DNA of 64,000 nucleotides from Candidatus Limnocylindria bacterium (GCA_038207785.1 JBBQZK010000001.1:9405-73404), one strand, 5' to 3'. Positions 6,013-33,158 are shown, numbered from the stretch's first letter. Notes: a model not told the origin generated them from the letters alone. A program made the numbers and translations.

Positions 6013-6034
6013 TGACATGTTACGAGGAATGTCA
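6013..6034. promoter_or_regulatory. everted inverted repeat TGACAT-N10-ATGTCA overlapping a perfect TTGACA -35-like hexamer on the minus strand, upstream of the dehydrogenase operon
   Basis: Read directly from the sequence. The half-site is the same as in the ATGTCACGTGACAT palindrome found elsewhere in the window. The 12-mer TGACATGTTACG recurs at 21183. Confidence 0.5.
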
Positions 6035-6060
6035 AAGGGCACGCGCTCCGCTCGCCGAAG

Positions 6061-6840
6061 TCAGACGGAGCGGACGGACCTCCGTCGGGGCTGCGGCGCA
6101 CGGACCGGAAGAGGCTCCGCCGCTCCATGCGTCGCCCGGACGCCGAGCAGGCTGCCGATGATCCGGGTCTGGCCGTCGCGCACGTGGCGCGCGGTCGCCT
6201 CTCGGGCACCCTGGCGGTCCCGCCGAGCGAGCGCCGAGACGATGTCGCCGTGATCGTTGGTCGGCAGCGCCTCCAGCAGCACCGGATCGACGTACGCGGT
6301 GATGGTCGGGTCGATGAGCAGGATCCGCCTGCTCTCATCGAGGAGGCCCTCGATGAGGTGGACCAGTCGCTCGTTGGCCGACAGGCGTGCGAGCGCCAGA
6401 TGGAACTCGGAGTTGGCCTCGATCGCGAAGCGACGGTATGCCGCGGGATCGGTGCTGAACTTCTTGGCCTCGGACTGCACCCGGCGCTGCAGGCGCTCGA
6501 ACCCGTCGACGTCGCGGTCCGTGACGTGGTCGACCGCGAGCTCGGCGGCCAGGGCCTCGAGGGCCAGACGAAGCTGGAAGATCTCCTGGACGTCACCGAC
6601 GCTGAGCTCGGTGACGACGTAGCCGACGCGGGGAATGACACTGACGAGGCCCTCGGTGCAGAGCAGCTTGAGCGCCTCGTGCACCGGCGTCCGGCTCATC
6701 TTGTACTTCTGGGAGACCTTTGTGCCGAGCACCATCTCCCCCGGCTTCAGCTTCGTGCTGAGGATGTCCTCTTTGAGCTGGCGATAGGCCTTCTGCGCGA
6801 GCGAGCGGGTGTTCTTGACGGATGAGCGGATCATCGGCAC
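6061..6840 (-). CDS. GntR-family transcriptional regulator (FadR-like, FCD C-terminal domain)
   Basis: It has the N-terminal winged HTH (…SQKYKMSRTPVHEALKLLCTEGLV…) and a helical FCD-like C-terminus. It sits 28 nt downstream of dppC in the same operon. Confidence 0.8.
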   Translation of the reverse strand: MPMIRSSVKNTRSLAQKAYRQLKEDILSTKLKPGEMVLGTKVSQKYKMSRTPVHEALKLLCTEGLVSVIPRVGYVVTELSVGDVQEIFQLRLALEALAAELAVDHVTDRDVDGFERLQRRVQSEAKKFSTDPAAYRRFAIEANSEFHLALARLSANERLVHLIEGLLDESRRILLIDPTITAYVDPVLLEALPTNDHGDIVSALARRDRQGAREATARHVRDGQTRIIGSLLGVRATHGAAEPLPVRAPQPRRRSVRSV

Positions 6841-6867
6841 TGCGCGGAGCCTAGCAAAGCACGGTCC

Positions 6868-7800
6868 TCACTCATTCGGGCCGCGACGTCGCGGATCGAG
6901 CACGTCCCGGAGACCGTCGCCGGCGAAATTGAATGCGAGCCCGGTGACGACGATGAGGACGCCGGGGATGGTGCTGACCCACCAGGCGACGTCGAGGATG
7001 ATGCGGCCGTCGGCCACCATGTTGCCCCACGTCGGCGTCGGGGGCTGCACCCCGAGGCCGAAGTAGCTGAGCGCCGACTCTTGCAGGATGACCGCGCCGA
7101 CGCGCAGCGTGGCCGACACGATGATCACCGGCGCGACGTTCGGAAGGATGTGCCGCACCATGATCCGCCCGCTGCGCGCGCCGACGGCGTGGGCGGCCTG
7201 CACGAATTCGGTGGTCCGGAGCGACAGAACGACGCTCCGAACGAGCCGCGCGGTCCCCGGCCAGGCCGACAGGCCAAGGAACACGATCAGCAGCTGCAGG
7301 CTCGAGCCGTAGATGCTGAGGACGGCGATGAGGAGGAAGAAGATCGGGATCGAAATGAAGACGTCCACGACGCGCATCAGGAAGTTGTCCGTCCGGCCGC
7401 CGACGTAGCCGGCGATCACGCCGATCGCGCTGCCGATGGTGACGCTGATCACCATCGCAACGAGACCGACGCTGAGCGACACCCGGGCTCCATAGATCGC
7501 GCGACTGAGCATGTCGCGTCCGAGCCCGTCGGTCCCGAGCCAATGAGCCGCCCCCGGCGCCTGCAGCCGGTCCCTCAGGATCTGCGCTTCGGGATCGGCC
7601 GGCGACACGAGAGGCGCGAGCAGACCGGCCACAGCGAACAGGAGCACGACCGATGCGCCCACCGCGACCCGGTGATTGGCGATCAGTCGCCGCCAGAGCT
7701 CGGGCCGCTTCCGCAGCACCGTGGCAGGAGCGGCGCCGGTCACGGACCGACCGACGACGGTCACGCTAGCTGTACTGGATCCGCGGATCCGCGGCGCCAT
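6868..7800 (-). CDS. peptide/nickel ABC transporter permease (DppC/OppC-like)
   Basis: It has the family-5 permease signature ...ESALSYFGLGVQPPTPTWGNMV.... An alternative GTG start at 7764 lies immediately after the dppB stop. Confidence 0.85.
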   Translation of the reverse strand: MAPRIRGSSTASVTVVGRSVTGAAPATVLRKRPELWRRLIANHRVAVGASVVLLFAVAGLLAPLVSPADPEAQILRDRLQAPGAAHWLGTDGLGRDMLSRAIYGARVSLSVGLVAMVISVTIGSAIGVIAGYVGGRTDNFLMRVVDVFISIPIFFLLIAVLSIYGSSLQLLIVFLGLSAWPGTARLVRSVVLSLRTTEFVQAAHAVGARSGRIMVRHILPNVAPVIIVSATLRVGAVILQESALSYFGLGVQPPTPTWGNMVADGRIILDVAWWVSTIPGVLIVVTGLAFNFAGDGLRDVLDPRRRGPNE

Positions 7801-8719
7801 AGAGCACGTCGGCGAGGAGGTTTCCGAGCACCGAGGCGATCGCGCTGAACAACGTGACCGTGATCACGACCGGATAGTCGCGGATGAACACCGAGTCGAC
7901 CGCGAGGCGGCCGACCCCTGGCAGCGAGAAGATGGATTCGACGATCGCCGCGCCGCTGATCAGGAACGGGAGCGTGAAGCCGAGCAGCGTGATCACCGGG
8001 AGGAGGGAGTTGCGCAGCGCGTGACGGACCACCACGGTCCGCCGCTGCAAGCCCTTCGCGTGGGCCGTCCGGACGTAATCCTGGCTGAGCGATTCGAGCA
8101 TCGACGACCGCACGTAGCGCGCGATCGTTCCCATGAGACCGGTGCTCAGGACGATAGTGGGCATCACCAGATACGGCGCCATCTCCATGGGATTCCATCC
8201 GGTCGCCAGTGGCGGTCGGATACCGCTCACCGGCAGCCAATGCAATCGGACCGCGAACAGCATGATGAGCATCAGGCCCAGCCAGAACGAGGGCACCGTG
8301 AAGCCGAACAGCGCGACGAGCGTGCCGAGGTAGTCGAGCGGCCCGTTGGGCCGGAGCGCCTGCAAGATGCCGATGGCGGCGCCCGCGAGCACGCCCACAA
8401 CGATCGCGAGCAGCCCGAGCGTCAGCGTTGTCGGCATGCGCTCGAGAACGAGATTGATCACCGGCTGGCGGGACCGGTACGAGTACAGCTCGCCCCGCGC
8501 GAGCGCGGTCATGGTCTTCACGTACTGCACCGGCAGCGGATCGTCGAGCCCGAGCTCCACCCGGAGCTCGCGGTATCGCTCGGGCGTGGCCTGCTCCGGA
8601 TCCACGAGCAGGCGCGCCGGATCGCCGGGGGCGAAGTGGATGATCGCGAACGACAAGATCGAGATCCCGATGATCAGCGGGATGAGCTGGATGAGACGGC
8701 GTGCGATGTACCGTCTCAT
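7766..8719 (-). CDS. peptide/nickel ABC transporter permease (DppB/OppB-like)
   Basis: It begins MRRYIARRLIQLIPLIIGISILSFAIIHFAPGDP, a typical DppB N-terminus. It has six TM segments and the EAA-like loop. Confidence 0.85.
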   Translation of the reverse strand: MRRYIARRLIQLIPLIIGISILSFAIIHFAPGDPARLLVDPEQATPERYRELRVELGLDDPLPVQYVKTMTALARGELYSYRSRQPVINLVLERMPTTLTLGLLAIVVGVLAGAAIGILQALRPNGPLDYLGTLVALFGFTVPSFWLGLMLIMLFAVRLHWLPVSGIRPPLATGWNPMEMAPYLVMPTIVLSTGLMGTIARYVRSSMLESLSQDYVRTAHAKGLQRRTVVVRHALRNSLLPVITLLGFTLPFLISGAAIVESIFSLPGVGRLAVDSVFIRDYPVVITVTLFSAIASVLGNLLADVLYGAADPRIQYS

Positions 8720-8773
8720 TCCAGCTCCCCCCTTACTGCGCGAACGCGGACGACCGGTGGCGTGGGTAGAACG

Positions 8774-10480
8774 CTAGACGGCCTCCCACTGTGCCGCGGT
8801 GGTCCAAAGCTGCGGGCTGACCTTGATCGGCGGGATCTTGACGGTGTTCCGAACGACGAGCAGGTCCTGGATCCGCCAGAGGTGGATGAATGGCACGTCC
8901 CCCTCGACGATGCTCTGGATCTCTCCGTAGATGCGTTTGATGTCCTTCTCCTCGGTCGCCTTCGTGCCCTGGACGAACAGGTCGTCGACCTTGGGGTTGG
9001 CGTACCCGACGGTGTCCGGGCTGGGAGGCGGGGTGTGGAGGAAGTTCGCCTGGAGGTCGATACGGGGATCGATCGTGAAGTTGCCCCAGCCTTGGAAGAA
9101 CCCTTCGTAGCCCCCGACCACGCCCTTGGAGATGATGGTGCCGAAGTCGAGCTGCTGGATCTGGAACGGGATGCCCATGGTCTTGAAATACGGCTGCAGC
9201 GCGGCCGCCCAAGGGGCAGTGCGCGGTGAGCACATGTAGGTCCACTCGAAGCGCTTGCCATTCTTCACCCGGACCCCGTCGGCGCCCATGGTCCACCCTG
9301 CCGCGTCGAGCAGCTGTTTGGCCTTGGCCGGGTCGTACTCATATTTGGGGGCCTGGGGGTTGTAGATGTAGGACAGCGGCGACACGAGCGAATAATTCGG
9401 TTCGGCCGTCCCGGCGAAGAGGGCGTCGGTGATCGCCTTCCGATCGGGGGTATGGGCCATCGCCTCACGGACATTGCGGTCGGAGAACAGGACATTGGTG
9501 GGGTCGAGCTGCATGTACCAAGCCGTGGTGCCCGGCGACCGCTGCGTCGTGTAGTTCGTCTTGTCCTTGTCGAACTCTCCGAACTGATCGGCGAGGACGG
9601 ACGCGACCTGCACGCTGCCCGCGCGGAGCTCGGCGATGCCCGTCGCCGCATCGGGGATGCCGCGGGAGATGATCGTGTCGAGCCGGGGACGCCCCGCGAA
9701 GTGGTCCTTGAACGCGGTGAGCACGACCCCCTCGCCGTTCTTCCAGTCGCTGACCATGAACGGTCCGGTCAGGATCGGCTTGCGCGCGAATGCCGACTTG
9801 GGATGGTCGGCGACGGGGATCGTCGAAAGGATGTGCTTGGGCACCATGATCGAGCTCGCGACGGTGACGAGGAAGATCGCCGACAGATTCTTCAGCTTGA
9901 AGACCACGGTGTCGTCCCCGCTGGTGGTGATCCCTGCGATCGTCGTCGCCTTCTTGTCCTTGAAGTCCTGCGCTCCGACGATGTTGGCGAGATTGGATGG
10001 CAGGCCGCCGGGCCGATCCGGATGGGACAGCGTCTCGTACGTGTACTTGATGTCCTCGAGCGTGAACGGATTGCCGTCGTGCCACTTGACGCCCTTACGG
10101 ACCTTGAACGTATAGGTCGTTCCGTCCGCGGACACCGTCCACGACTCGGCCAGGTCCGGCGTTGGGCTCATTTCCGGGAGCTGGACCCTGACCAGGCGAT
10201 TCGCCGTGGCGAAGAAGATGTTCCCCGCGTAAGCGTTCCCATTGCCGTAGGGCAAGAGCGTGTTCGGCTCCTGCCCCTGGTTGATGATGAGCGTGCCGCC
10301 GATCTTGGGCGCCTTCGTTCCGCCGGCCCCGGGCGCCGCGCTGCCGCTGGTGGTCGGTCCGGTCGTCGCCGGCTGGCAGGCGGCCAGCGCCGCGAGCGCC
10401 GCTGCGCTCAAGCCGGTCGCCGCGATGAGCTCTCTGCGCGTGAGGACCGTCTGCCCTGAAGGACCCTTCGCTCGCCTCAT
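8774..10480 (-). CDS. ABC transporter substrate-binding protein, family 5 (peptide/nickel), Tat/lipoprotein signal
   Basis: It has an RR motif and an ...AALAALAAC lipobox. It is 568 aa, and its start has a GGAGG RBS. Confidence 0.85.
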   Translation of the reverse strand: MRRAKGPSGQTVLTRRELIAATGLSAAALAALAACQPATTGPTTSGSAAPGAGGTKAPKIGGTLIINQGQEPNTLLPYGNGNAYAGNIFFATANRLVRVQLPEMSPTPDLAESWTVSADGTTYTFKVRKGVKWHDGNPFTLEDIKYTYETLSHPDRPGGLPSNLANIVGAQDFKDKKATTIAGITTSGDDTVVFKLKNLSAIFLVTVASSIMVPKHILSTIPVADHPKSAFARKPILTGPFMVSDWKNGEGVVLTAFKDHFAGRPRLDTIISRGIPDAATGIAELRAGSVQVASVLADQFGEFDKDKTNYTTQRSPGTTAWYMQLDPTNVLFSDRNVREAMAHTPDRKAITDALFAGTAEPNYSLVSPLSYIYNPQAPKYEYDPAKAKQLLDAAGWTMGADGVRVKNGKRFEWTYMCSPRTAPWAAALQPYFKTMGIPFQIQQLDFGTIISKGVVGGYEGFFQGWGNFTIDPRIDLQANFLHTPPPSPDTVGYANPKVDDLFVQGTKATEEKDIKRIYGEIQSIVEGDVPFIHLWRIQDLLVVRNTVKIPPIKVSPQLWTTAAQWEAV

Positions 10481-10525: not shown

Positions 10526-10539
10526 ATGTCACGTGACAT
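10526..10539. promoter_or_regulatory. operator palindrome ATGTCACGTGACAT upstream of the substrate-binding-protein-dppBC-GntR operon
   Basis: It is a perfect 14-bp palindrome lying about 45 nt upstream of the substrate-binding-protein ATG. It is part of the repeated promoter-operator cassette. Confidence 0.7.
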
Positions 10540-10557: not shown

Positions 10558-10586
10558 ATGATGCGTCGCCGCCGATGCGCGGTCAA
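10558..10586 (-). promoter_or_regulatory. putative promoter: TTGACC (-35) - 17 nt - CATCAT (-10-like), directly upstream of the operator
   Basis: The same -35/17-nt/-10 arrangement recurs at 12119-12147, 16280-16308 and 24872-24900. Confidence 0.45.
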
Positions 10587-10597: not shown

Positions 10598-12061
10598 CTA
10601 CGGATACGGATTGACCGAAAGGGTGTTGAAGTTGCGGAGGAACGCCGGGATCGGCGCATCCGTGAAGGCCGGGGCGACCGCGCTGGCGTCCGGCCCGCCG
10701 ATGAGCTTGCCGTATGGGTTGCTGAGCCCAGCGGCAGCGGTGTTGAGATCGGCGGCCTTCGTGCTCGGCCAGCTGCCGTGGTCGATCCGGCCCAGCAGCA
10801 CCTGGATCGCGGCGATCTGCTCGGCGGCGGTGAACTGGCAGTGACCCGAGCGGTGCACGAGCAGCTGTCGGAGCTGGCTCGAGGTGCCGGCGTCCAGGAA
10901 CGCCTGCGCGTAGCCCTGGTCCTGGTTCGGGTATCCATAGGGGTCGGCCTGGGTGTGCATCGTCATGACGACCGCGCGCCCGATGTTGCCGCTGAAGATC
11001 GGATCGAGGTCCTCGACCTTCGTCACCGTGCCGGGATCCGCGCCGATGCGCGGCGCGCGCGCGAGCGTGCGGAGATCGGCGGCGAGGTTGAGTCCCGCGG
11101 CGGCATACATCGCCCGAACGATGTCGGCCGATGCCGAGCGCGCGAGCTGCGCCCCGTAGTCGACGCCGGTGTTCCAGGAGAAGTTCCCTCCGGTCACCGA
11201 GCCGTCGACGCTGTTCCAGGTGCCGACGCGGATCTCATAGTCGGCCCGGCCGTCGTCGTGATACATCCCATTGAATCGGCTGTTGAGGTACTGGTTGTAC
11301 TGCCGTGTCGCGTAATCGGTCGCGGCCGGCTGGGTCGCTCGCGCGTCGTCGATCCAATCCGGCGTATCGACCATCGCCTCGGCCAGCGCGAGGCGGGCGC
11401 GGCCTGCGGCCGTCTGCTGCGCGGCGTCGACCGTGGCGATGTAGGCGTTGTAGTAGCGGGTCAGCTGTCCGCCGTACTTGCCGATGTTCACCAGCGGCTG
11501 ATCGAATCCGAGGAGCTGCTGCATCACGAAGGCGTGGTCGAGGCGCTCGTTCGCGCGTCCGATGCTGCCGGCGATGTAGGTGCATTCCGCGAGCCCGCCG
11601 GCGAATCGCCCGGGATAGAACTGGAGCAGGTGCGCGGTCACCGCCCCACCGGCGGAGAGACCCCAGGCGATCGTCCGCGCCGGGTGACCGACGAGCCGCT
11701 CGAACGTGTCGAGCACGAGGGCCTGAGATGGATACATCTGCTTCGGCTCGTAGCAGAAGTCGCTGCAGGCGTACGAGCCCCCGGCGATCGCGAAGCCCTG
11801 GCCCAGCAGCCATTGGCGCGTCCACTGGTCGGAGCTGACCTGCGCGAGATTCGGGTCGCCCTGGATCCCGTGGCTGTAGAGGAAGAGCGTGCCGTTGTAG
11901 CTCCCCGGGACCTCGATGCGGTAGGTCGCGCCGTCGCTCATCGTTCCGACGTACACCGTCGGAGTGCTCGTCGCCGATGCCGACGTCCCGGTCAGGCCGA
12001 TCGCGACGACGAGTGCCACGCCGACGAGCCAGGCCGGCCAGCTGCTGCGCCCTGTCATCAT
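10598..12061 (-). CDS. secreted alpha/beta-fold hydrolase (esterase/depolymerase-like), signal peptide
   Basis: It starts MMTGRSSWPAWLVGVALVVAIGLTGTSASA and has a GGAGG RBS. It has a G-x-S-x-G nucleophile elbow, GLSAGG. The ORF-track start at 12691 is an over-extension. Confidence 0.5.
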   Translation of the reverse strand: MMTGRSSWPAWLVGVALVVAIGLTGTSASATSTPTVYVGTMSDGATYRIEVPGSYNGTLFLYSHGIQGDPNLAQVSSDQWTRQWLLGQGFAIAGGSYACSDFCYEPKQMYPSQALVLDTFERLVGHPARTIAWGLSAGGAVTAHLLQFYPGRFAGGLAECTYIAGSIGRANERLDHAFVMQQLLGFDQPLVNIGKYGGQLTRYYNAYIATVDAAQQTAAGRARLALAEAMVDTPDWIDDARATQPAATDYATRQYNQYLNSRFNGMYHDDGRADYEIRVGTWNSVDGSVTGGNFSWNTGVDYGAQLARSASADIVRAMYAAAGLNLAADLRTLARAPRIGADPGTVTKVEDLDPIFSGNIGRAVVMTMHTQADPYGYPNQDQGYAQAFLDAGTSSQLRQLLVHRSGHCQFTAAEQIAAIQVLLGRIDHGSWPSTKAADLNTAAAGLSNPYGKLIGGPDASAVAPAFTDAPIPAFLRNFNTLSVNPYP

Positions 12062-12080: not shown

Positions 12081-12094
12081 ATGTCACGTGACAT
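12081..12094. promoter_or_regulatory. operator palindrome ATGTCACGTGACAT upstream of the secreted hydrolase gene
   Basis: It is a perfect 14-bp palindrome 20 nt upstream of the ATG. A TTGACC-N17-CATCAT promoter lies at 12119-12147. Confidence 0.7.
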
Positions 12095-12143
12095 GCAACG
12101 TGCACCCGGCCTTGCGCGATGATGGGCTTCCTGGGCCCTCGGG

Positions 12144-13493
12144 TCAATGACCGGGCCCGGAGGCCGCGGGCGCATCCGATCGTGCCGCGGCGAACAGCGC
12201 CGCGCGATCGACCGGCGTCCCGCGCTTGAACACCATCGCGATGCCGGTGGTCGCGGCGATCGTCCGCGTCGGGTCGCCGACGACCAGAACGAGGTCCGCT
12301 CGCTTCCCCGGCGCAACGACGCCGATATCGCTCGCCCCGAGCGTCTCTGCAGGCACGCTCGTCGCCGCCCGGAGCGCGGCGGCGGGTGAAAGGCCGGACC
12401 GCACGAGAAGCTCGAGCTCGCGATGGAATGAACTGCCCGGCAGGATGTAGGCGAACGGCGCATCGGTCGCGGCATGCAGGCGCACGCCCGCTTCGAACAT
12501 CGCGCCGGTGAACCGCATGACCTTCTCGAGCGCCCGCGCCGCCTGCGAGTAATCGGCCGCCGACCAGCCCTCGACGAACCGGTCACGCGTCTCACGCCAC
12601 CCGGAGCGCGCGACCGCGGCGTACTCGGCCATCGCCGGGTCCGCGTCGAGCGCCTCGATGCCGCGCCGGCCCCGTTCCACCGTGCGATCAAGGGTGATGA
12701 GCGTGGGGTTCACGTAGATCCCCTGCTCGGCCAGCCGCGCCGCGATGCGCTTGGTCCGGTCGGCTCCGAGGTCGACGGCCGCCCAGCCGCGGACGAAGTT
12801 GGCCCAGAACGCGCCGAGCCCGCGGCGGCGGCGATCCTCCGCCGGCCAGATGAGCTCCTCGGGCACGACCTCGGTGTAGAGGGACTGGGCGGTGTGCTCG
12901 AGACCGGCGACGCCGCAGTCGATGGCCTCGCCGGCGCGCACCTGTCCGAGATGGGCGCTCGTGCTCAGGCCGTGCTCGCGGGCTCGCCGGACGAACGTCC
13001 GCATGGCGGCGGCAGGCAACATCATGTACGCCTTACACGCGTCGACCCGCTTCTCGTCCAGCAAGTCGGCCGCGCGCACGGCATCCTCGTCATTCGCGAG
13101 GGCAAGGGAATGATCGGGCCAGAACGGCTCGGCGCCGTCGATCAGCGGACCGCAGCAATAGATGCGCGGGCCGCCGTCGCCACCGGAGCGCTCCGCGGCT
13201 CGCCACGGCAGGATGCGTTCGAAGGAGTTCCCGACGTCCTTGACCGTGGTGATGCCATAGGCGAGCCACAGGGGGAGCGCCTGCGGCTGCACGTGCGTGT
13301 GCATGTCGATGAACCCTGGCAGCACGGTGTGGCCACGCCCCGCGATGGTCCGGGCGCCCGCCGGCACTGCCGTGCGTTCGCGCGGCCCGCAGGCGACGAT
13401 CAGCTCGCGCTCGAGCACGACAGTGGCGTCCTCGATCACCGGGGCGCCGGTCCCATCGAACAGCCGCGCGCCGACGATCGCGATGGGCGCCAC
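12144..13493 (-). CDS. amidohydrolase-superfamily metal-dependent hydrolase
   Basis: It has ...LPGFIDMHTHV... with HxH metal ligands and a C-terminal ...GTDAP.../...GKRADLVLV... region. The GTG start at 13493 follows the M20 stop; the ORF-track start would overlap 104 nt. Confidence 0.7.
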   Translation of the reverse strand: MAPIAIVGARLFDGTGAPVIEDATVVLERELIVACGPRERTAVPAGARTIAGRGHTVLPGFIDMHTHVQPQALPLWLAYGITTVKDVGNSFERILPWRAAERSGGDGGPRIYCCGPLIDGAEPFWPDHSLALANDEDAVRAADLLDEKRVDACKAYMMLPAAAMRTFVRRAREHGLSTSAHLGQVRAGEAIDCGVAGLEHTAQSLYTEVVPEELIWPAEDRRRRGLGAFWANFVRGWAAVDLGADRTKRIAARLAEQGIYVNPTLITLDRTVERGRRGIEALDADPAMAEYAAVARSGWRETRDRFVEGWSAADYSQAARALEKVMRFTGAMFEAGVRLHAATDAPFAYILPGSSFHRELELLVRSGLSPAAALRAATSVPAETLGASDIGVVAPGKRADLVLVVGDPTRTIAATTGIAMVFKRGTPVDRAALFAAARSDAPAASGPGH

Positions 13494-13497
13494 GGGC

Positions 13498-16267: not shown

Positions 16268-16290
16268 GCAGGCGATCGGATGATGCGCGC

Positions 16291-24910: not shown

Positions 24911-24924
24911 ATGTCACGTGAAAT
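24911..24924. promoter_or_regulatory. operator ATGTCACGTGAAAT, with a TTGACC-N17-CATGCT promoter at 24872-24900, upstream of the DJ-1 pair
   Basis: It matches the cassette architecture, here on the plus strand. Confidence 0.6.
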
Positions 24925-24953: not shown

Positions 24954-25571
24954 GTGACTGACCGCCGGCGGGTCGGCATCGTGCTGTTCGAGGATGTCGA
25001 GGACATCGATTATGTCGGGCCCCTCACCGTCTTCGGGATGGCCTCGCAGCTGTTCCCGGACGAGCTGGAGACCGTGACGGTGAGCGCCACCGGAGCGGCG
25101 GTCCGGACGTCGATGGGCGTCTCGGTGCTGCCGCACGCGAGCTTCGCGTCCGCGGGACGGATCGACATCCTGGTCGTGGCCGGCGGGACCGGACATCGCG
25201 CAGCGATGCTCGATCGCGAGCTGACCGACTGGATCGCCGAGCGCGCGCGGGATGCCGAGATCGTCTCGTCGGTCTGCTCGGGAGCGTTCATCCTCGCGGC
25301 CGCCGGCGTGCTGCGCGATCAGCCCGCGACCGCCGCCTGGATGGCCCTCGACCGGCTGCGCGCGACGTTCCCGAGCCTGGACGTCCGCTCGGACGTGCGG
25401 TGGGTCGACGAAGGCGGCGTGGTCACGAGCGCCGGGGCGTCCGCGGGCATCGACATGAGCCTCCATCTCGTGGACCGGCTGCTCGGCCCGGCCGCGGCCG
25501 CGCGGGTCGTGAAACACATGTCGTATACCGGCTGGCCGGTGCGTGAAGGGGTGCCGGGTGCGATCGGATAG
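24954..25571 (+). CDS. DJ-1/PfpI-family protein (glutamine amidotransferase-like class 1)
   Basis: It has ...RRVGIVLFEDVEDIDYVGP... and the nucleophile elbow ...SVCSGAFILAAAGVL.... The GTG start is at 24954; the ORF-track TTG at 24900 would include the operator. Confidence 0.7.
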   Translation: MTDRRRVGIVLFEDVEDIDYVGPLTVFGMASQLFPDELETVTVSATGAAVRTSMGVSVLPHASFASAGRIDILVVAGGTGHRAAMLDRELTDWIAERARDAEIVSSVCSGAFILAAAGVLRDQPATAAWMALDRLRATFPSLDVRSDVRWVDEGGVVTSAGASAGIDMSLHLVDRLLGPAAAARVVKHMSYTGWPVREGVPGAIG

Positions 25572-26187
25572 CGATCCGCGTCGGGTCGGCGTGCTCGTCT
25601 ACCCGGACGTCGAGGACCTCGACTTCGTCGGACCGCTCGAGGTCTTCGGCATGGCCGCGCGGCTGCGCACGGGCGCGCTCGAGGTGCTCACCGTCGCCGA
25701 GACCACCGCGCCGGTGCGCACGTCGTTCGGGCTGTTGGTCACCCCCCACTGCAGCTTCGCGACTGCGCCGCCGATCGACATCCTCGTCGTGCCGGGCGGC
25801 GGTGGCGCCTGGGCGAGCCTCGAGAACCGCACCTTGCTGGACTGGATCGCGCGGAGCGCGGCGGGGGCCGAGATCACGACCTCGGTGTGTTCGGGGGCGA
25901 TGCTGCTCGCGGTGGCGGGCGTCCTTCGTCACCAGCCCGCGACGACGCACTGGAACGCGATGAGCCGGATGCGCGAACGGTTCCCCGATCTCGAGCTGCG
26001 GGAGGGCGTGCGCTGGGTGGACGAGGGCGGCGTGATCACGAGCGCCGGCGTCTCGGCGGGGATCGATATGGCTTTGCACGTCGTCGAGCGGCTCTTCGGA
26101 CCCGAGACCGCGGACCTCACCGCGCACTGGCTGCAGTACGAGCCCTGGCGCGCCGCCCGGCTGGCGGCGGCCTCGGCCGCCGGATGA
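25558..26187 (+). CDS. DJ-1/PfpI-family protein (tandem paralogue)
   Basis: It is roughly 55% identical to the upstream gene (…SVCSGAMLLAVAGVL…). An alternative GTG lies at 25543. It overlaps the upstream gene. Confidence 0.7.
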   Translation: MRSDSDPRRVGVLVYPDVEDLDFVGPLEVFGMAARLRTGALEVLTVAETTAPVRTSFGLLVTPHCSFATAPPIDILVVPGGGGAWASLENRTLLDWIARSAAGAEITTSVCSGAMLLAVAGVLRHQPATTHWNAMSRMRERFPDLELREGVRWVDEGGVITSAGVSAGIDMALHVVERLFGPETADLTAHWLQYEPWRAARLAAASAAG

Positions 26188-26206: not shown

Positions 26207-28165
26207 CTAGCCCGGGCCGAACCCGTCGACCGGCGCGATCCGCCGTTGTCCCCGCGGACTCGTTTCCAGCACTTCGAGGATCGTGCCATCCGGTCCGAGG
26301 CGGTAGTCCTGCTCAGTGAGCTCGCTTACCCGATCGATCGCGACGCGCCAGGCCGTGCCTGCGGCCTCGCCAGCGGGCGGGCGGCTCGCCACAACGCTGA
26401 CACTGCGCGGCTCGCCACGCTCCAGCGTCAGCCCCTGCCGCGAAGCCTCGCCGGAGCTCGCCGCGACGGCCGCGGCGAGCGCGGTGACCGACACCCGTTC
26501 GGTGGCGATGACCTTCCCGGGCAAGGTGATCGTTGACTGGAATCCGTCGATGGCCTGGACCTCGACGATCGTGTCGCCACCCTCGGCGGACCGCACCTCG
26601 ATCGTGTCCTCGCCCAGCGGCGACACCATGCGCTGCGTGCCGCGGACGATGGTCCCGTCCGCCTTCAGATCGAGGCTGGTGGTCCGCACCATTCGCCCGC
26701 CCTGGCCCTGCTCGCTCGCGGTCCGCTCCTCGACGCGCAGCTCGCCCCGAGACGTACGGCTCCGGCGGAAGCTCGTCTCGGCGACCACCGCGCCGGCGAC
26801 CTCATCGCGCAGCCGCCCGGCCCGCAGGGCCGTAGCGTCGTCCGAGGGTGGATCGAGCTCCGTCTCGAACACGGGCGGCCGCTCAACAGCTCGCGCGCGG
26901 TCGGCCAGTCGCGCCTCGAGCGCATCGCGCGCGAAGTCGTAGCCGTTCACGAAGACGTGAGCGATCTCGCGGAGCGCGGCGACGTCGTCGACCGGATTGC
27001 CCGGGAGGAGCAGGAGATCCGCCCGCTTCCCCACCTCGACCGTCCCCCAGTCCGCCGTCTCGTTCACGAACCGCGCGGCTTCGACGGTCCCGCAACGCAG
27101 GGCCTCATAGCTCGAGAGGCCGGCCGCCCGCAGGTTTGCGAGCTCGCGGTGGATCGAGAAGCCCGGGATCACGTAGGGGTTCGGCGTGTCGGTGCCAAGG
27201 AGCAACGGGGCGCCTTCGCTATGCAGCACGCCGACGATGCGCCGGTAGACCTCGCTCAGCCGCGCGAGCGTGTCGTAGTAGTCGTCGTCGAAGGTCTGGC
27301 CGCGGAACCGGAAGTCCTGCGAGGGGTCCCAGGCCGCACGCGTGGCGGGGCTCATGTAGCGCAGGTACGGATCGAGCCTCGCCTGCGCCGGCCGTTGGGT
27401 GGTCTGCTGCCAGACGACACCGGTCGGGCAATTCCAGATCTGCTGCTCGTGCATCAGCACGGCGAGCCGCCGGATCGAATCCCAGTCGAGGTGCTCGATC
27501 GCGAGCTTCGCCAGGGCCAGGCGGTTGGCGCGGTCGCTCGGATCGGGCATCGTTACGCCCGCCTCCAAGTGATCGCGGCGAATGCCCGTGAGGTGCTCAA
27601 AGCAGGTGTGGCCGTTCGCGATCGCCTGCTCGTAGCTGATCGAGTCCGGGCAATGCCCGGTGATCATGACCCCGTGGGTCTTGGCCGCGACGCAGAGCGC
27701 GGCGTGGGACTCCGGGCTCAGCCACGAATACACTTTGATCTGCGGGTACCCGCGCTCCGCCCAGGCGCGCACGAGCGGCTCGGCCTGTTCGGGACGGGCG
27801 ACCATCGCCGAGGTGGACCAGATCGTGCGCCCGCTTTTGCCAGGGCCGTCGACGATCGGACTCGTCGTGATCAAATGGGGACCGGGGAGCAGGCCGTTAC
27901 GGATCTGTCGCTGGAGGGCCAGGTGCATCGGCGCGCCCCACATGTTGCGAACGGTCGTGACGCCGTTGGCGAGGTAGAGCCGGTACTCGTCCAGGTCCCA
28001 CCAGTGCACGTGCATGTCGGCGAGGCCGGGCATCAGGTACCGTCCGCGGCCCTCCACCACACGGGCGCCGGGTGGCACGACGCAGGTCGCCGCCGGACCG
28101 ATCGATCGGATCCGGCCGGCTTCGATGACGACGGTCTGATCGGGGATCACTGCGTCGCGGTCCAT
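26207..28165 (-). CDS. amidohydrolase-superfamily protein with a C-terminal extension of roughly 180 aa
   Basis: It has ...LMPGLADMHVHWWD... and ...GTDTPNP... and ...GKRADLLLLPGNP.... The ATG at 28165 follows the cupin gene stop; the ORF-track start at 28624 overlaps the cupin gene. Confidence 0.6.
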   Translation of the reverse strand: MDRDAVIPDQTVVIEAGRIRSIGPAATCVVPPGARVVEGRGRYLMPGLADMHVHWWDLDEYRLYLANGVTTVRNMWGAPMHLALQRQIRNGLLPGPHLITTSPIVDGPGKSGRTIWSTSAMVARPEQAEPLVRAWAERGYPQIKVYSWLSPESHAALCVAAKTHGVMITGHCPDSISYEQAIANGHTCFEHLTGIRRDHLEAGVTMPDPSDRANRLALAKLAIEHLDWDSIRRLAVLMHEQQIWNCPTGVVWQQTTQRPAQARLDPYLRYMSPATRAAWDPSQDFRFRGQTFDDDYYDTLARLSEVYRRIVGVLHSEGAPLLLGTDTPNPYVIPGFSIHRELANLRAAGLSSYEALRCGTVEAARFVNETADWGTVEVGKRADLLLLPGNPVDDVAALREIAHVFVNGYDFARDALEARLADRARAVERPPVFETELDPPSDDATALRAGRLRDEVAGAVVAETSFRRSRTSRGELRVEERTASEQGQGGRMVRTTSLDLKADGTIVRGTQRMVSPLGEDTIEVRSAEGGDTIVEVQAIDGFQSTITLPGKVIATERVSVTALAAAVAASSGEASRQGLTLERGEPRSVSVVASRPPAGEAAGTAWRVAIDRVSELTEQDYRLGPDGTILEVLETSPRGQRRIAPVDGFGPG

Positions 28166-28257
28166 CGGCACGAGCGTGACCGATGTGATCGCGACCGGAC
28201 CCTCGGGCCGCGCGGGAATGTCCAGGCCCTCGCGGAGGGCCGGCAGTCGAGCGGAGC

Positions 28258-28881
28258 TCACGCTCGGTCCGACCGCCAGGTCTCGCCGGCGTCCCGGATC
28301 GTCGCCGGTCCGCCGGCACGGACCCGGAGGTGGCCGAAGCGCTGGTTGATGCTCGAGCCGAGCGCCTCGATGTCGGCGCCGTACACGTGGATCGAGATGG
28401 CCGGACCTGCCCCGGCGTTGCTGACGCGGTGGATGTTCTCCTCGGGCGGGACGAGTGCCGAGCAGTCGCCGCGAGCCGCCCGCTCGTGTCCCGCCTCGAC
28501 GAGGTAGCGGTCCTCGCCGGACCGCATGAGGCGGTAGCGGATCTGGGACTCCTCCCCCTCGTACACGCCCACGACGCACCAGCAGATGTGGTCGTGGATG
28601 GGCGTGGCCTGGCCGGGATGCCACACGAGGGCGACGACGCTGAACGAGCGATCCGGGGAGACCGCGAGCACGTGTTGGGTGTAGCGGTCAGGGGTGCCGG
28701 CTCGCGCACCCTCGGGCAGCCACGAGCGATCCGCGAGGAGCGGCGGCAAGCGCCGCATCGCGAGATCGGCCATCTCCCGGGGACCTCTGCCGTCGGCCTG
28801 CGCCGCCGACAGCTGGGCCACGAACGATCGCAGCGCGGGCGCGAGCGTCGGCGCTGACGGACCGGACCTCACCGCTTGCAT
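28258..28881 (-). CDS. cupin-fold protein (cysteine dioxygenase type I-like)
   Basis: It has ...ALVWHPGQATPIHDHICWCVVGVYEGEE.... The ATG at 28881 lies inside the operator. The ORF-track GTG is at 28893. Confidence 0.55.
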   Translation of the reverse strand: MQAVRSGPSAPTLAPALRSFVAQLSAAQADGRGPREMADLAMRRLPPLLADRSWLPEGARAGTPDRYTQHVLAVSPDRSFSVVALVWHPGQATPIHDHICWCVVGVYEGEESQIRYRLMRSGEDRYLVEAGHERAARGDCSALVPPEENIHRVSNAGAGPAISIHVYGADIEALGSSINQRFGHLRVRAGGPATIRDAGETWRSDRA

Positions 28882-28893
28882 GTTACGTGACAC
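28880..28893. promoter_or_regulatory. operator variant ATGTTACGTGACAC spanning the stop of the amidohydrolase gene and the start of the cupin gene
   Basis: The amidohydrolase TAA is at 28885..28883 and the cupin ATG at 28881..28879. Confidence 0.5.
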
Positions 28894-30145
28894 GGCTGGT
28901 GCCGCCGCGCGGCCGCTCCTCGAGGGGAGCGGCTGAACGGATGCGGACCCCGGACTGCATCACGAACCGCACGCGCCCGCGGTCGCTGAAGAGCGCCGGC
29001 TCGGACAACGGGTCCCCGGCGACGCCGATGAGGTCCGCCTGCTTACCCGGTTCGAGCGTGCCGACCGTGTCCAGCCCGAGGCAGGCGGCCGCCGTCTTCG
29101 TGGCCGCCATGATGGCCTGCAACGGAGTCATGCCGGCTTCGACCATGAAGCTGATCTCCTCGGCGTTCGCGCCATGCGGGCCGATGCCGGTGTCCGTCCC
29201 CATCGCGATCCGCACGCCCATCCGGAGGGCCAGCTGGAATGCCTCACGATGCCGCCCGATCAGGGCGTCCGCCTTCTTGATCACGTAGCTCGGCATGGCC
29301 GCCGGATCCGCGTCGGCCCGCCGGCGGGTCCACGGCAGCGCCGAAAGCGTCGGCACGAGGAACGTTCCGCGCTCGACCATCATCAGGCAGGCTTCCTCGT
29401 CGAGGAAGGTCCCGTGCTCGATGGACTCGATCCCGGCAAGCACGGCGTTCTTGATCCCCTGCGCCGAGTGAGCGTGAGCCATCACGGTCTTCCCCGCGGC
29501 GTGCGCCTCGTAGACGACGACGGCGATCTCCTCCGGCGAGAATCCCGTGGCGGTCGGCTCGTCGCTCGGCGACATGACCCCACCCGAGGTCAGCACCTTG
29601 ATCTGATCGGCGCCCGCGCGGAGCAGCTCGCGGGTGCCACGCCGAACGGCGTCCACGCCGTCGACCACGGCCATCGGGCGCTCCGCGTCCACGGGAAGGC
29701 GCATGACCACGCCCATCGGCATGAGCTGATCGCCGTGCCCACCGGTCTGAGACAGCGCGCCGACCGAGAGGCGCATCCGCGGCCCCGGGAACAGGCCACG
29801 GTCCACCGCGAGCCTGACTCCACGGGGCGTCCCGCCGCCATCGCGCACGGTCGTGATGCCCGCCTCCAGCGTCGCGCGCGCGTTGAACAGAGCCTGGGCG
29901 GTCACGAGGCTCGACGGCGTGAGCAGCTTCTCCTGCGCGTTGAAGGTCGTGATCCCCAGGTGCACGTGGCTGTCGATGAGTCCGGGGAGGATCGTCAGCT
30001 CGGACGCGTCGATCACCTCCGCGTCTCGCGGGCGCTCGCTGCCGACGCGCTCGATGCGGCCGTCGGCGATGGTGATCCAGGCTGGGCGCACCGGATCGGC
30101 GCCGGTGCCGTCGATGACCCCGCCCGCGTGGATCGCCGTCCTCAC
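28883..30145 (-). CDS. amidohydrolase-superfamily protein
   Basis: It has ...ILPGLIDSHVHLG... and ...GTDTGIGPHG... and ...GKQADLIGV.... Confidence 0.75.
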   Translation of the reverse strand: MRTAIHAGGVIDGTGADPVRPAWITIADGRIERVGSERPRDAEVIDASELTILPGLIDSHVHLGITTFNAQEKLLTPSSLVTAQALFNARATLEAGITTVRDGGGTPRGVRLAVDRGLFPGPRMRLSVGALSQTGGHGDQLMPMGVVMRLPVDAERPMAVVDGVDAVRRGTRELLRAGADQIKVLTSGGVMSPSDEPTATGFSPEEIAVVVYEAHAAGKTVMAHAHSAQGIKNAVLAGIESIEHGTFLDEEACLMMVERGTFLVPTLSALPWTRRRADADPAAMPSYVIKKADALIGRHREAFQLALRMGVRIAMGTDTGIGPHGANAEEISFMVEAGMTPLQAIMAATKTAAACLGLDTVGTLEPGKQADLIGVAGDPLSEPALFSDRGRVRFVMQSGVRIRSAAPLEERPRGGTSRVT

Positions 30146-30149
30146 GGCC

Positions 30150-30863
30150 TCAGATCCCCCACTTGGCGCGATCGGCGGCCTCGGAGTCGGTCCAGTGCGC
30201 GACGCGCGCGGTCATCCCCATCGCGTCGATGTAGCTCTCGCCGCCGACCATCCGCGCGTGCCGCTCCTCTTCCAGCGCGGCATGCGCCTCGGTCAGCTCG
30301 ATGACCCGCTCGGCGTCCGCGCGCGGCACGACGACGACGCCGTCGTCGTCGCCCAGGATCAGGTCGCCCGGCTGCACAGGAATGCCGCCGCACTGGATCG
30401 GGATGTTGATCGCCCCCGGCCCGGCGCCAGGCCAGAGCGGCATCGCCACCGACCGGGCGAAGACCGGCCAGCCCTTCGCGCGCAGGATCGTCGCGTCGCG
30501 CACCCCGCCGTCCACCACGATCCCGGCCGCACCGGCCCGCTCCAGGTACCAGGCGATGCGGTCGCCCATGCAGCAGAACTCCTTGATGCCGGCCGCATCC
30601 ACGACGATGACCTCGCCCGGACGGACCACGTCCGACGACTTCAGGACGAAGAGCGCATCGGCGGCCCGGGTCCACACCGTCACCGCAGGCCCGCAGACCT
30701 TCATCCCCGGTGCGATCGGCTTGATCTCGTGATGCACGGCCCCGTGACGACCCATCGCGTCATACGCATGCACCGGCGGGTGCGCCCTGAACCGCTCGAT
30801 GAGCCCTGCGGGCAGCGGCTCGGGCGCCGCGAGGATCTTCCCGTACTGGCTGTGCCGCTCCAT
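30150..30863 (-). CDS. RraA-family protein (RraA/HMG-CHA aldolase/oxaloacetate decarboxylase-like)
   Basis: It has ...GIVVDGGVRD... and ...GWPVFARS.... The ATG at 30863 has a GGAGG RBS. The ORF-track extension is junk. Confidence 0.7.
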   Translation of the reverse strand: MERHSQYGKILAAPEPLPAGLIERFRAHPPVHAYDAMGRHGAVHHEIKPIAPGMKVCGPAVTVWTRAADALFVLKSSDVVRPGEVIVVDAAGIKEFCCMGDRIAWYLERAGAAGIVVDGGVRDATILRAKGWPVFARSVAMPLWPGAGPGAINIPIQCGGIPVQPGDLILGDDDGVVVVPRADAERVIELTEAHAALEEERHARMVGGESYIDAMGMTARVAHWTDSEAADRAKWGI

Positions 30864-30918
30864 GATGTCGCCTCCGTCGCCGAACTCTGGCCCACCCGGT
30901 CCGCGTGGTCGCTTGGGA

Positions 30919-31944
30919 TCACGACCAGTCCAGCACGACCTTTCCGCACTCACCCGAGCGCACGACGGCGAAGGCCTCCGCGAACTGCGCCGCGCGGAAC
31001 CGGTGCGTGATGACCGCACCGATGTCGAGGCCGCTCTGGAGCATCGAGCCCATCCGATACCAGGTCTCGAACATCTCCCGGCCGTAAATGCCCTTGATCG
31101 TGAGGCCGCGGAAGATGACTTGGTTCCAGTCGATCGCCACCTCTTCGTTGGGGATCCCGAGGAGCGCGATGCGACCGCCGTGGTTCATCGTGGCGAGCAT
31201 CGAACGGAGCGCGGCCGGGCTTCCGGACATCTCGAGTCCGATGTCGAACCCCTCCAGCATCCCGAGCTCTGCCATGACGCCGCTGAAGGTGGTCGCCGCC
31301 GGGTCCACCGCGAGCGTCGCGCCGAGCGTTCGCGCAAGGTCGAGCCGGTACGGATTGCGGTCGCTGACCACGACGTAGCGGGCGCCCACGAACTGGCTCA
31401 CCGCCGCGGCCATCACCCCGATCGGTCCGGCGCCGGTGATGAGCACGTCCTCGCCGGCGAGCTCGAAGGACAGCGCGCTGTGGATCGCGTTGCCGAGCGG
31501 ATCGAGGCATGAGCCGATCTCGTCCGGCATGCCGGCGGGCAGCACATACGCGTTCGTCGCAGGCACCGTCACCTCGTCGGCGAACGCTCCGGGGCGCTGG
31601 ACCCCGATCCCCTCGGTGTTTCGGCACAGGTGGCGGCGGCCGGCCCGGCAGTTCCGGCAATGGCCGCAGGTCACGTGGCCCTCGACAGCGACCCGCTGTC
31701 CGATCTCGAATCCGCGCACGAGATCGCCGATCTCGACGATCGACCCCATGAATTCGTGGCCGACGACCAGCCCGATCGGCACGTTGGCGCGGGACCAGGC
31801 ATCCCAGTTCCAGATGTGCAGATCGGTGCCGCAGATCGAGGTGTAATGGACGCGGATCCGTAGATCGTTGGGGCCGGTCAGGGGAGCCGGCACATCGTCG
31901 AGCCAGAGTCCGGCCTCGGGCCTGCTCTTCACGAGCGCGCGCAT
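30919..31944 (-). CDS. tdh: L-threonine 3-dehydrogenase
   Basis: It is near-collinear with E. coli Tdh (…[14 protein letters not shown]… …[19 protein letters not shown]… …GKVVLDWS). It is ATGA-coupled to kbl. Confidence 0.9.
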
Positions 31945-33134
31945 CAGCTGGCGCCGAGCTCCCGTCCGGCGGTCGCGAACGCCTCGAGCGCGCGGTCGAC
32001 GTGCGCGGACTCGTGGGCGGCCGAGAGCTGTACGCGGATCCGCGCCTCCCCGCGCGGCACGACCGGGAACGAGAATGCGATGACGTAGATCCCGAGCTCG
32101 AGGAGCCGGTCGGCCATCCTCGTCGCGAGGCCCGCGTCGCCAAGCATGACCGGCACGATCGGATGCTCGCCGGGAATGATCCGGAAGCCGCGCTGCGCCA
32201 TCCCCTCGCGGAACCGGACCGTGTTCGCCCAGAGCCGCTCTCGCTCCAGGCTGGATCGCTCGATGAGATCCAGCACCGCGATCGACGTCGCGGCGATCAC
32301 GGGTGCGAGGCTGTTCGAGAACAGGTAGGGCCGGGACCGCTGCCGCATGAGCTCGACGATCTCTTTGCGCCCGGAGATATAGCCGCCGGAGGCGCCACCC
32401 AGCGCCTTGCCGAGCGTGCCCGTGATGACGTCCACCCGGCCGACCACACCACCGGCCTCGTGGGATCCGCGGCCGCTCGCGCCCATGACGCCGACCCCGT
32501 GCGAGTCGTCGACCATGACGAGCGCGTTCGAGCGGTCCGCGAGATCGCAGATGCCGCGGAGATCCGCCACGACGCCGTCCATCGAGAACACCCCGTCGGT
32601 CGCGATGACCGTGAAGCGGGCTCCCGAAGCCGCGGCGAGCTGACGCTCGAGATCGTCCAGATCGTTGTTCGCGTACCGGTAGCGCGTCGCTTTGGACAGA
32701 CGCACGCCGTCGATGATGCTGGCATGGTTGAGGGCATCGCTGATGATCGCGTCACCCTCGCCCACGAGCGTCTCGAAGAGGCCCCCATTCGCGTCGAAGC
32801 ACGAGCCATAGAGGATGGTGTCCTCGGTGCCGAGGAAGCGCGTCAGGCGATCCTCGAGCTCGGTGTGGATCTCCTGCGTGCCGCAGATGAACCGGACCGA
32901 CGAGAGCCCATAGCCCCACCGATCGAGGGCCCGGTGGGCCGCGGCCACGACGTCCGGGTGATTGGAGAGCCCGAGGTAGTTGTTCGCGCAGAAATTGAGG
33001 ACCTCGCCGCCCGGGCGAGCGACGATGACGGCCCCCTGGGCCGAGGCGAGGACCCGTTCGCGCTTGAACAGCCCGGCATCACGGATGCCGTCGAGCTGCC
33101 CGCGGAGGTGGTCGGACAGCGCGGTCGTCCGCAT
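31944..33134 (-). CDS. kbl: 2-amino-3-ketobutyrate CoA ligase (glycine C-acetyltransferase)
   Basis: It is near-collinear with E. coli Kbl (…[15 protein letters not shown]… …SVRFICGTQ… …[12 protein letters not shown]…). The MRTT start at 33134 matches the E. coli N-terminus. An alternative ATG at 33146 lies inside the operator. Confidence 0.9.
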
Positions 33135-33158
33135 GCTACGTAACATGTTACGTCAGTG
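33133..33158. promoter_or_regulatory. two overlapping operator variants, ATGCTACGTAACAT at 33133-33146 and ATGTTACGTCAGTG at 33145-33158, between kbl and the asparaginase gene
   Basis: They overlap the kbl start codon(s) and end just before the asparaginase GTG at 33156. Confidence 0.55.

Follow-up and report, generated by a model that had tools for sequence, protein, structure and literature searches.

A 64,000-nt stretch of DNA from a Candidatus Limnocylindria bacterium (GCA_038207785.1, JBBQZK010000001.1:9405-73404, hereafter the window) carries recurrent copies of the 14-bp palindrome ATGTYACGTRACAT within an island of hydrolase, peptidase and transport genes. The palindrome is probably the operator of the GntR/FCD transcription factor encoded at 6061-6840 in the same island, which would release eleven transcription units on binding an effector. 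By a gene map built from codon log-odds, with nearly all called genes annotated with Pfam, these eleven units comprise approximately 32 genes between 0.4 and 34.2 kb and each begins at a site. An earlier note on this DNA had described a regulon of some 30 genes with a site at every operon start; the gene count agrees with the map, and every transcription-unit start between 6 and 34 kb does carry a site.

The palindrome and its distribution in the window

The window is 70% GC. TGTNACGTNACA is expected in it 0.04 times and was found five times as an exact match. Searching for ATGTCACGTGACAT with up to three mismatches returned eight matches against 1.5 expected. Seven of these start at 10526, 12081, 16254, 21186, 24911, 28880 and 33133 and are the strong copies of the 14-bp palindrome; the remaining one, at 46960, is weak and lies within a coding region. 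A symmetrised position weight matrix (PWM) was built from the seven sites, which makes it circular as a test for the window itself. Its scores are bimodal, with the seven sites at 22.8-28 bits, the next match at 14.6 bits (position 6017) and all others below 10 bits. No match of at least 20 bits appeared in 200 local shuffles of the window. The seven coordinates given earlier were exact, all being recovered by both the mismatch scan and the PWM, and the accompanying judgement that such recurrence is very unlikely by chance is upheld by the exact counts and the shuffles.

All seven sites are intergenic, intergenic DNA making up 5.2% of the window, in keeping with the confinement to promoter regions that had been claimed. 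No strong copies were found in coding regions, where a density similar to that between genes had been named as grounds for abandoning the idea. Two sites touch a gene: that at 28880 overlaps a stop codon (Table 1) and that at 33133 abuts or overlaps the start of kbl. The distance from operator end to start codon ranges from -2 to 58 nt, so the closeness to start codons stands but the range of 10-50 nt first put on it does not. Scanning with the PWM gave no site between 34 and 64 kb of the window, bearing out an impression previously gained by eye. Beyond the other edge, a perfect-class site (ATGTTACGTGACAT) is present at L001:6421-6434, in a Candidatus Limnocylindria metagenome-assembled genome of the same species (92% nucleotide identity to the window) that keeps the motif. 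This site, approximately 600 nt left of window position 1, is flanked on one side by a luciferase-like monooxygenase gene, of which window 40-429 is the 3′ end, and on the other by an ornithine cyclodeaminase (OCD)/mu-crystallin gene, which is followed by a gene for a pyridoxal phosphate (PLP)-dependent enzyme. The extent of about 28 kb originally assigned to the regulon thus holds for the island-wide spread of sites but not for its boundary, which lies beyond the left window edge.

That the sites match by chance, or are left over from a repeated or mobile element, has a negligible probability. Nothing but the repetition itself speaks for it, and five exact copies stand against 0.04 expected. 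Moreover, the flanks of the sites are common only over approximately 22 bp plus the promoter hexamers, sites are kept at orthologous positions amid otherwise diverged intergenic DNA, and the GC content of the island equals that of the rest of the window (0.701 vs 0.703). Horizontal transfer or compositional oddity was considered separately and rejected, GC content being alike inside and outside the island, as are the CACGTG counts (15 in the island half and 16 in the other half of the window).

When 19 sites, drawn from the window and its close orthologues, were aligned in each orientation, a conserved block of approximately 22 bp emerged (c-T-T-R-C ATGTYAC GTRACAT G-Y-A-A-g). In palindrome form this is TTRC-ATGTYACGTRACAT-GYAA, of which TCGGATGTCACGTGACATGCAA is an example. 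The 14-bp palindrome first reported is real, but it is the centre of this longer palindrome and not the complete element. GT and AC are separated by 6 nt in all seven sites, as well as at the orthologous loci (ATGT-CACGTG-ACAT), which conforms to the family signature (N)yGT(N)xAC(N)y with x = 6 and agrees with the suggested compatibility with a GntR-type site. Partial second copies are offset by exactly 12 nt at four sites (6017/6029, 12081/12093, 21186/21198 and 33133/33145) and match the extra half-site boxes, 7-12 nt from the centre, described for operators of the GntR family and FadR subfamily (PMC4494728). The overlapping second copy noticed earlier near 33133 is real (ATGTTACGTCAGTG at 33145).

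A weaker copy (TTTGACATTCCTCGTAACATGTCAAT on the coding strand, 6011-6036) has one degenerate inner half-site, with both outer arms intact. A 23-nt block, T(G/A)ACATTCYTCGTAACATGTCAA, is kept in the window and in two related loci (L096 and L010) bar two transitions, amid flanking DNA that has diverged. Judged by this conservation, the copy that separates the regulator gene from the alcohol dehydrogenase (ADH) operon is a genuine site under constraint, if a weaker one. Its previous description as an everted-half-site variant at 6013-6034 was right as to the presence of a site but not as to its type, which is a degenerate copy of the extended operator.

The regulator and the motif in related loci

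In 1-34 kb Pfam recognises no regulator gene other than that at 6061-6840, in a survey that took in nearly all called window genes and left out a few short ones (47-86 aa). This gene follows the permease genes after 27 nt, behind the site at 10526, and by the gene map falls in their unit, in agreement with the claims that it is the sole regulator of the island and is co-transcribed with the transporter. Other regulators of the window are outside the island, namely a PucR-type helix-turn-helix (HTH) gene (41525-42217) and an OmpR-type response regulator gene (58613-59290) accompanied by a kinase gene. The central CG and ATGT...ACAT arms also recall operator patterns of the LacI and PadR families; this candidate was rejected, no such regulator gene being present in the Pfam survey of the window.

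The encoded protein scores 53.4 bits with the GntR winged helix-turn-helix family (PF00392, cut-off 27, residues 14-76) and 75.3 bits with the FCD family (PF07729, cut-off 24.3, residues 86-221). In an AlphaFold model with a predicted local distance difference test score (pLDDT) of 85, helices occupy residues 81-231, and the best fold matches (McbR, TM0439, PmiR, AlkR and Atu1419) are all FCD regulators, with a probability of 1.0 and a template modelling score (TM-score) of approximately 0.5-0.7. Profile alignment places N143-x3-H147, H197 and H219 (NSEFH147, DH197, RH219) opposite NRIFH141, QH192 and EH214 of Atu1419 (6z74), in which Asn137, His141, His192 and His214 are an Asn/His3 zinc site (PMC7797058). 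The regulator is predicted to carry the same kind of site, i.e. an Asn plus three His. These three His and R50 are invariant in 25 orthologues. R50 belongs to the helix MSRTPVHEAL, aligns with the SRTPV of Atu1419, TM0439 and 7u5q and corresponds to the conserved recognition-helix Arg that contacts the G of the GT box. Domain and residue tests of this kind assign the protein, as a prediction, to the FCD branch of the GntR/FadR subfamily (VanR-like, metal-binding).

Orthologue contexts came from exact-protein look-ups; a contig scan with the single protein gave one close relative (L001), and a metagenome scan with alignment gave mostly distant paralogues. The motif accompanies GntR/FCD orthologues of 52-97% identity in four other gene contexts. 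L096 (GntR 85% identical) has a perfect ATGTCACGTGACAT 57 nt before the gene of the substrate-binding protein (SBP), plus a weak site after the GntR gene. L010 (67%), a compact and syntenic island, has four sites at the orthologous operon starts: one ahead of the cupin gene (GTGTCACGTAGCAT at L010:337, the counterpart of the 28880 site), one in the divergon of the DJ-1 and amidohydrolase genes, one ahead of the SBP gene and one following the GntR gene. In L008 (62%) three weaker sites lie next to a Rieske oxygenase gene and an unknown gene. The neighbourhood is different in L011/L012 (52%), where ATATCACGTGACAT is found in the divergent region that separates the GntR gene from an aminotransferase gene. 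The motif is therefore kept in L096, L010, L001, L008 and L011, its loss from orthologous islands having been named beforehand as evidence against the regulon. Across 962 kb of related loci there are ten matches of at least 22 bits against 0.2 expected, a count that includes two near-duplicate contig pairs (L011/L012 and L033/L034). In approximately 70 loci with unrelated GntR clades no match reached 22 bits, and one lone AT-rich match scored 20.9 bits (L003).

Moreover, in paralogues with the helix SRSPVxQAL (vs SRTPVHEAL) the outer CATGT...ACATG arms are kept and the centre is changed. Such sites (CATGTTAGCTAGCATG and CATGTTAATGAACATG in L013, CATGCTAGGTAACATG in L016) are found in SBP/luciferase divergons or upstream of the regulator gene. 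A distant clade, 31-32% identical and with the helix LGKAPIRxAL, has the same core inside a perfect 24-bp palindrome, TTGACATGTCACGTGACATGTCAA (Table 1). There it lies between a gene of 274-282 aa with no Pfam match and genes for DUF1007 and NicO, a nickel/cobalt-type transporter; among the nearby genes are two for corrin methylases (L033/L034) and one for an HMA P-type ATPase (L031). These loci have nothing in common with the window beyond the GntR homologue, and a homologue of their unknown 277-aa gene was sought in the window and not found. An FCD-GntR protein may control a metal transporter in this clade.

The motif occurs together with the regulator gene in different contexts, has a copy upstream of the regulator gene itself and varies along with the recognition helix; taken together, these findings make the island GntR the strongly favoured binder. 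The GntR-controlled regulon put forward earlier likewise draws support, at the level of sequence, from the orthologous loci, the joint change of helix and motif and the shared core of the distant clade. A real operator could nonetheless serve a factor encoded outside the window (e.g. a global nitrogen or amino-acid regulator), the GntR gene being merely one of its targets. We consider this unlikely, since the motif tracks GntR orthologues into four contexts, including the regulator's own divergent region in L011, its centre changes together with the recognition helix, the distant clade and the window share the GntR homologue alone, and there is neither a site in the 30 kb beyond the island nor another regulator gene in 1-34 kb. 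Several observations do weigh against the GntR protein as repressor of the whole island, and the first three of them favour an outside factor. The visible genome is 64 kb only. The GT-AC distance is atypical for FadR/FCD regulators, being 6 nt throughout where TKGT-N3 (or N2)-ACMA is typical, though not obligatory (PMC4494728). The distant clade combines the same core with another recognition helix, so that either specificity resides elsewhere in the protein or the shared motif is otherwise explained. In addition, L015, L037, L097 and L098 (45-49% identity) contain no clear copy of the motif, L015 having only the loosely similar CATGTCTCTATGCATG, and no promoter was recognisable at six of the eleven units by the consensus and relaxed scans described below.

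The distant clade also raises the idea that this FCD lineage may sense a metal or metal-ligand complex through the Asn/His3 site, which would make the island a metal-responsive metalloenzyme regulon. The idea arises because the sister-clade operator precedes DUF1007-NicO near corrin methylases and a heavy-metal ATPase, and because the window regulon is rich in metal-dependent hydrolases and has a NikA-related binding protein first. We regard it as very unlikely; if true, it would represent a new class of metalloregulator within the GntR family and not a substrate-induced catabolic cluster.

Two apparent deletions in L001 were set aside. One of 366 bp, which would cut the C-terminus of the regulator, spans a ten-N scaffold gap (L001:471-480) and is an assembly artefact, not a natural knockout. 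The other (approximately 480 bp, window 1308-1791) was provisionally dismissed as an artefact too. Separately, in a Thermomicrobiales relative (49%) the gap between permease and GntR genes (L097:4400-4578) holds inverted GTGAGTGGTGA/CACCACTCACC repeat runs and not the palindrome.

Promoters and the proposed mode of control

Promoters were identified as consensus matches only, three by a sigma-70 scan and a fourth by a relaxed scan (Table 1). TTGACC-N17-CATCAT has three exact copies in the whole window; each is on the coding strand and has an operator shortly downstream. In four of the units, 10-24 nt separate the -10 hexamer from the operator, which is thereby placed at about +4 to +31 relative to the inferred transcription start; a GGAG-type ribosome-binding site comes after it. 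In the SBP upstream region of three genomes (window, L096 and L010) the only conserved blocks are the -35 and -10 hexamers, the operator and the Shine-Dalgarno sequence (SD). Such a pattern is the classical phylogenetic footprint of a promoter that has an operator downstream of it. TTGACC-N17-CATCAT/CATGCT may be a house promoter consensus of the lineage or a regulon-specific promoter class. At the paralogous locus L013 the arrangement TTGACG-N17-TAACAT overlaps the operator, the half-site TAACAT being where a -10 box would be expected.

The following mechanism is proposed. A dimer, or a dimer of dimers, would read the ATGT/ACAT boxes of the 22-bp palindrome (TTRC-ATGTYAC-GTRACAT-GYAA). Where the operator lies between the -10 box and the SD, the protein on it would hinder promoter escape or early elongation, and over the -10 box it would likewise repress; the position of the operator relative to the promoter is what suggests repression. 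In the three short divergent gaps one central site could serve both directions. By analogy with solved FCD repressors, a small-molecule effector bound at the Asn/His3 metal site would release the protein, and release would switch on the eleven units, the regulator's own operon included.

It is also conceivable, though we think it quite improbable, that the GntR protein binds the sites and acts as an activator or dual regulator at some or all units. The six units without a recognisable separate promoter are in its favour, as is the resemblance of the half-site (TAACAT/TGACAT) to a -10 box, by which it may belong to the promoter, as in the overlap at L013. At four units, however, the operator comes after a conserved -35/-10 pair, where a repressor would sit, and an operator over the -10 box is a repressor position too. 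Moreover, characterised FCD relatives such as Atu1419 repress (PMC7797058).

Since the sites fall between predicted promoter and SD they would be transcribed, and the palindrome can fold as a hairpin, which would suit an RNA element (a hairpin in the 5′ untranslated region, or a processing or translation signal); an alternative sigma-factor promoter element is a related suggestion. Both are highly improbable. A closer inspection revealed that positions 5 (C/T) and 10 (G/A) vary independently, breaking the pairing, and that sites are self-complementary at 10-12 of 14 positions with no compensatory changes; the stem would be at most 5 bp with a 4-nt loop. The RNA-hairpin reading was rejected for this lack of co-variation at the variable positions. 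Furthermore, both strands share one element in the divergent gaps, the dyad symmetry remains complete even ahead of one-directional operons, unlike in sigma-factor promoters, and a separate sigma-70-like promoter is conserved upstream.

Relation to described regulators

Atu1419 of Agrobacterium fabrum is a VanR-type FCD member of the GntR superfamily (PDB 6z74 and 6za3; PMC7797058). It shares with the regulator the two-domain architecture and the fold, a similar recognition helix (ISRTPVREAL there, MSRTPVHEAL here) and a metal site of Asn plus three His that aligns column for column. Its operator, ATGTATACAT, has the same ATGT/ACAT boxes, but is 10 bp long (GT-N2-AC), with the boxes 4 bp closer than in the GT-N6-AC found here (PMC7797058). 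It represses several promoters of a catabolic cluster, including its own, through perfect and degenerate palindromes (PMC7797058), and both kinds are likewise present in the island. The differences are that the two proteins are approximately 24% identical, that Atu1419 is a proven DNA-looping tetramer with an eight-gene regulon (vs approximately 32 genes here), and that its effector comes from hydroxycinnamate degradation, whereas for the island regulator an effector position is proposed only by analogy.

Other FCD proteins that are the closest solved relatives by profile and fold are TM0439 of Thermotoga maritima (3sxy, 3fms), McbR/YncC (4p9f) and PmiR (7xp0). A three-His metal site of the same type occurs in TM0439 (PMC7797058). 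All three are 21-26% identical to the regulator and have different targets or ligands where these are known, and this operator is not reported for any of them. AraR of Bacillus subtilis, also with a GntR-type winged helix-turn-helix, has the operator ATTTGTACGTACAAAT, of the TGT-ACGT-ACA type with an ACGT centre. Unlike the island regulator it has a LacI/GalR-like effector domain in place of FCD and a GT-N4-AC spacing. AraR binds cooperatively to adjacent sites (PMC4494728).

FadR-subfamily regulons were reconstructed by comparative genomics by Suvorova, Korostelev and Gelfand in 2015, with Chloroflexi contributing 6 of the 634 regulators analysed (PMC4494728). They resemble the island in having palindromic GT...AC operators with TKGT/ACMA-type boxes, a single mid-divergon site for both operons, weaker boxes 7-12 nt off centre and autoregulated local repressors of catabolic and transport operons (PMC4494728). 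They differ in the GT-AC distance, which is typically 3 nt and in some groups 2 nt (PMC4494728), against 6 nt here, and the number of operators per island is high here, with eight in the window and more beyond its left edge. Full-text literature searches for TGTCACGTGACA, and for GTCACGTGAC with GntR, gave no described operator that matches. Even so, to call this an undescribed system, as was done earlier, was an overstatement, because a local FadR/FCD repressor with palindromes before several catabolic operons, divergon-centred sites and extra boxes is the textbook pattern (PMC4494728, PMC7797058). The system is an unusually complete multi-operator regulon in an uncultured lineage and an ordinary kind of gene switch, with no new regulatory principle.

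Its value lies in offering a clean, testable regulon for Limnocylindria (Chloroflexota), which are uncultured, abundant in soil and freshwater and essentially without experimentally characterised regulation. Some 32 genes, many of them for hydrolases of unknown substrate from the amidohydrolase superfamily and elsewhere, are grouped as one functional unit, which narrows the search for substrates and inducer. The half-sites are spaced unusually widely for an FCD regulator, which could help in framing rules of specificity within the GntR family, and the compact set of repressor, operator and promoter could be tested in a heterologous host.

Island genes and feature coordinates

The island looks like a peptide, amide and amino-acid scavenging cluster of uncultured Limnocylindria. 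Its predicted gene content (Table 1) points to peptide and amide uptake and hydrolysis, followed by amino-acid catabolism (kbl-tdh, asparaginase II, OCD-family and PLP enzymes). Pfam finds five Amidohydro_1 genes plus two phosphotriesterase (PTE)-family genes, and not the six amidohydrolases counted before. Both kbl and tdh exceed NCBIfam equivalog cut-offs. The amidohydrolases are nearest to Caulobacter-type Xaa-Pro dipeptidases and the M20 peptidase to dipeptidases, all below the NCBIfam cut-off. Neither these proteins nor the binding protein or the PTE-family proteins reach an equivalog cut-off. For the binding protein the best NCBIfam matches are Opp4A (236 against a cut-off of 650) and NikA (165 against 393).

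An importer of Opp/Dpp/Nik type (PepT) is represented by the binding protein and two permeases, with no adjoining ATPase subunit: no ATP-binding cassette (ABC) ATPase gene stands beside them in the window, L010, L096, L013, L016 or L097. The importer ATPases may be encoded elsewhere or shared. In L010 the gene order of unit 2, from the zinc-dependent ADH (Zn-ADH) to glyoxalase_3, likewise follows the GntR gene.

Table 1. Coordinates of operators, promoter-like sequences, genes and transcription units in the window, and of the palindrome in the distant clade.
Feature	Coordinates	Strand	Context
Degenerate extended operator TTTGACATTCCTCGTAACATGTCAAT	6011-6036	-	between GntR stop and ADH start
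Operator core ATGTCACGTGACAT	10526-10539		45 nt upstream of SBP start codon (10480); invariant in window/L096/L010 alignment
Operator core ATGTCACGTGACAT	12081-12094		19 nt upstream of gene 10598-12061; partial copy 12093-12106
Operator core ATGTCACGTAACAT	16254-16267		55-nt divergent gap between amidohydrolase-M20-amidohydrolase operon (-) and amidohydrolase 16291 (+)
Operator core ATGTTACGTTACAC	21186-21199		divergent gap between operon 17546-21164 (-) and creatininase-PTE-3HCDH-YeiH (+); partial copy 21198-21211
Operator core ATGTCACGTGAAAT	24911-24924		29 nt upstream of two DJ-1/PfpI genes
Operator core ATGTTACGTGACAC	28880-28893		58 nt upstream of cupin-amidohydrolase operon; overlaps stop codon of gene 28883-30145
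Operator core ATGCTACGTAACAT with overlapping half-copy ATGTTACGTCAGTG	33133-33146; 33145-33158		between kbl-tdh-RraA-amidohydrolase (-) and asparaginase II (+)
Promoter-like TTGACC-N17-CATCAT	10558-10586	-	SBP-permease-permease-GntR operon; -10 ends 18 nt before operator
Promoter-like TTGACC-N17-CATCAT	12119-12147	-	24 nt upstream of 12081 operator
Promoter-like TTGACC-N17-CATCAT	16280-16308	-	12 nt upstream of 16254 operator, minus-strand operon
Promoter-like TTGACC-N17-CATGCT	24872-24900	+	10 nt upstream of 24911 operator
GntR/FCD (VanR-like) transcription factor gene, proposed repressor	6061-6840	-	last in transporter operon
Unit 1: SBP_bac_5, two Opp/Dpp-type permeases (6868-10480), GntR/FCD gene	10480 to 6061	-	site 10526; Pfam
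Unit 2: Zn-ADH, acyl-CoA synthetase, 4HBT thioesterase, M29/NicX-like, nitroreductase, glyoxalase_3	433-5987	-	weak site 6011-6036; Pfam
Unit 3: single gene	10598-12061	-	site 12081
Unit 4: amidohydrolase-M20-amidohydrolase	12144-16235	-	site 16254
Unit 5: amidohydrolase	16291-17559	+	site 16254, divergent
Unit 6: unknown, PTE, hydratase-like, NHL propeller	17546-21164	-	site 21186
Unit 7: creatininase-family, PTE, 3HCDH, YeiH	21220-24845	+	site 21186, divergent
Unit 8: two DJ-1 genes	24954-26187	+	site 24911
Unit 9: cupin and 684-aa amidohydrolase	26207-28821	-	site 28880
Unit 10: kbl, tdh, RraA-like, amidohydrolase	28883-33134	-	site 33133
Unit 11: asparaginase II	33156-34196	+	site 33133, divergent
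Distant-clade palindrome	L036:2703-2740		
Distant-clade palindrome	L034:11495-11532		same in L033 at 2024
Distant-clade palindrome	L031:3569-3606		
Distant-clade palindrome, weaker	L032:3097; L039:1583		

Directly to the right of the island (34246-43125) are leuD-leuC-leuA-ilvC-(ilvN)-ilvB on the minus strand, followed by the short PucR-type HTH gene already mentioned (41525-42217) and an ACT/DUF5612 gene (42442-43125); no palindrome is present at any of these. Some minus-strand genes of the island are poorly matched to known families. The gene at 10598-12061 has only a sub-threshold match to the tannase-like DUF6351, that at 20124-21164 has no family match, and that at 18499-19209 has only a weak likeness to 2-keto-4-pentenoate hydratase. 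In the 684-aa amidohydrolase (26207-28261, minus strand) the Amidohydro_1 domain ends near residue 440, leaving approximately 240 C-terminal residues without a Pfam match; the orthologue in L010 is 415 aa long.

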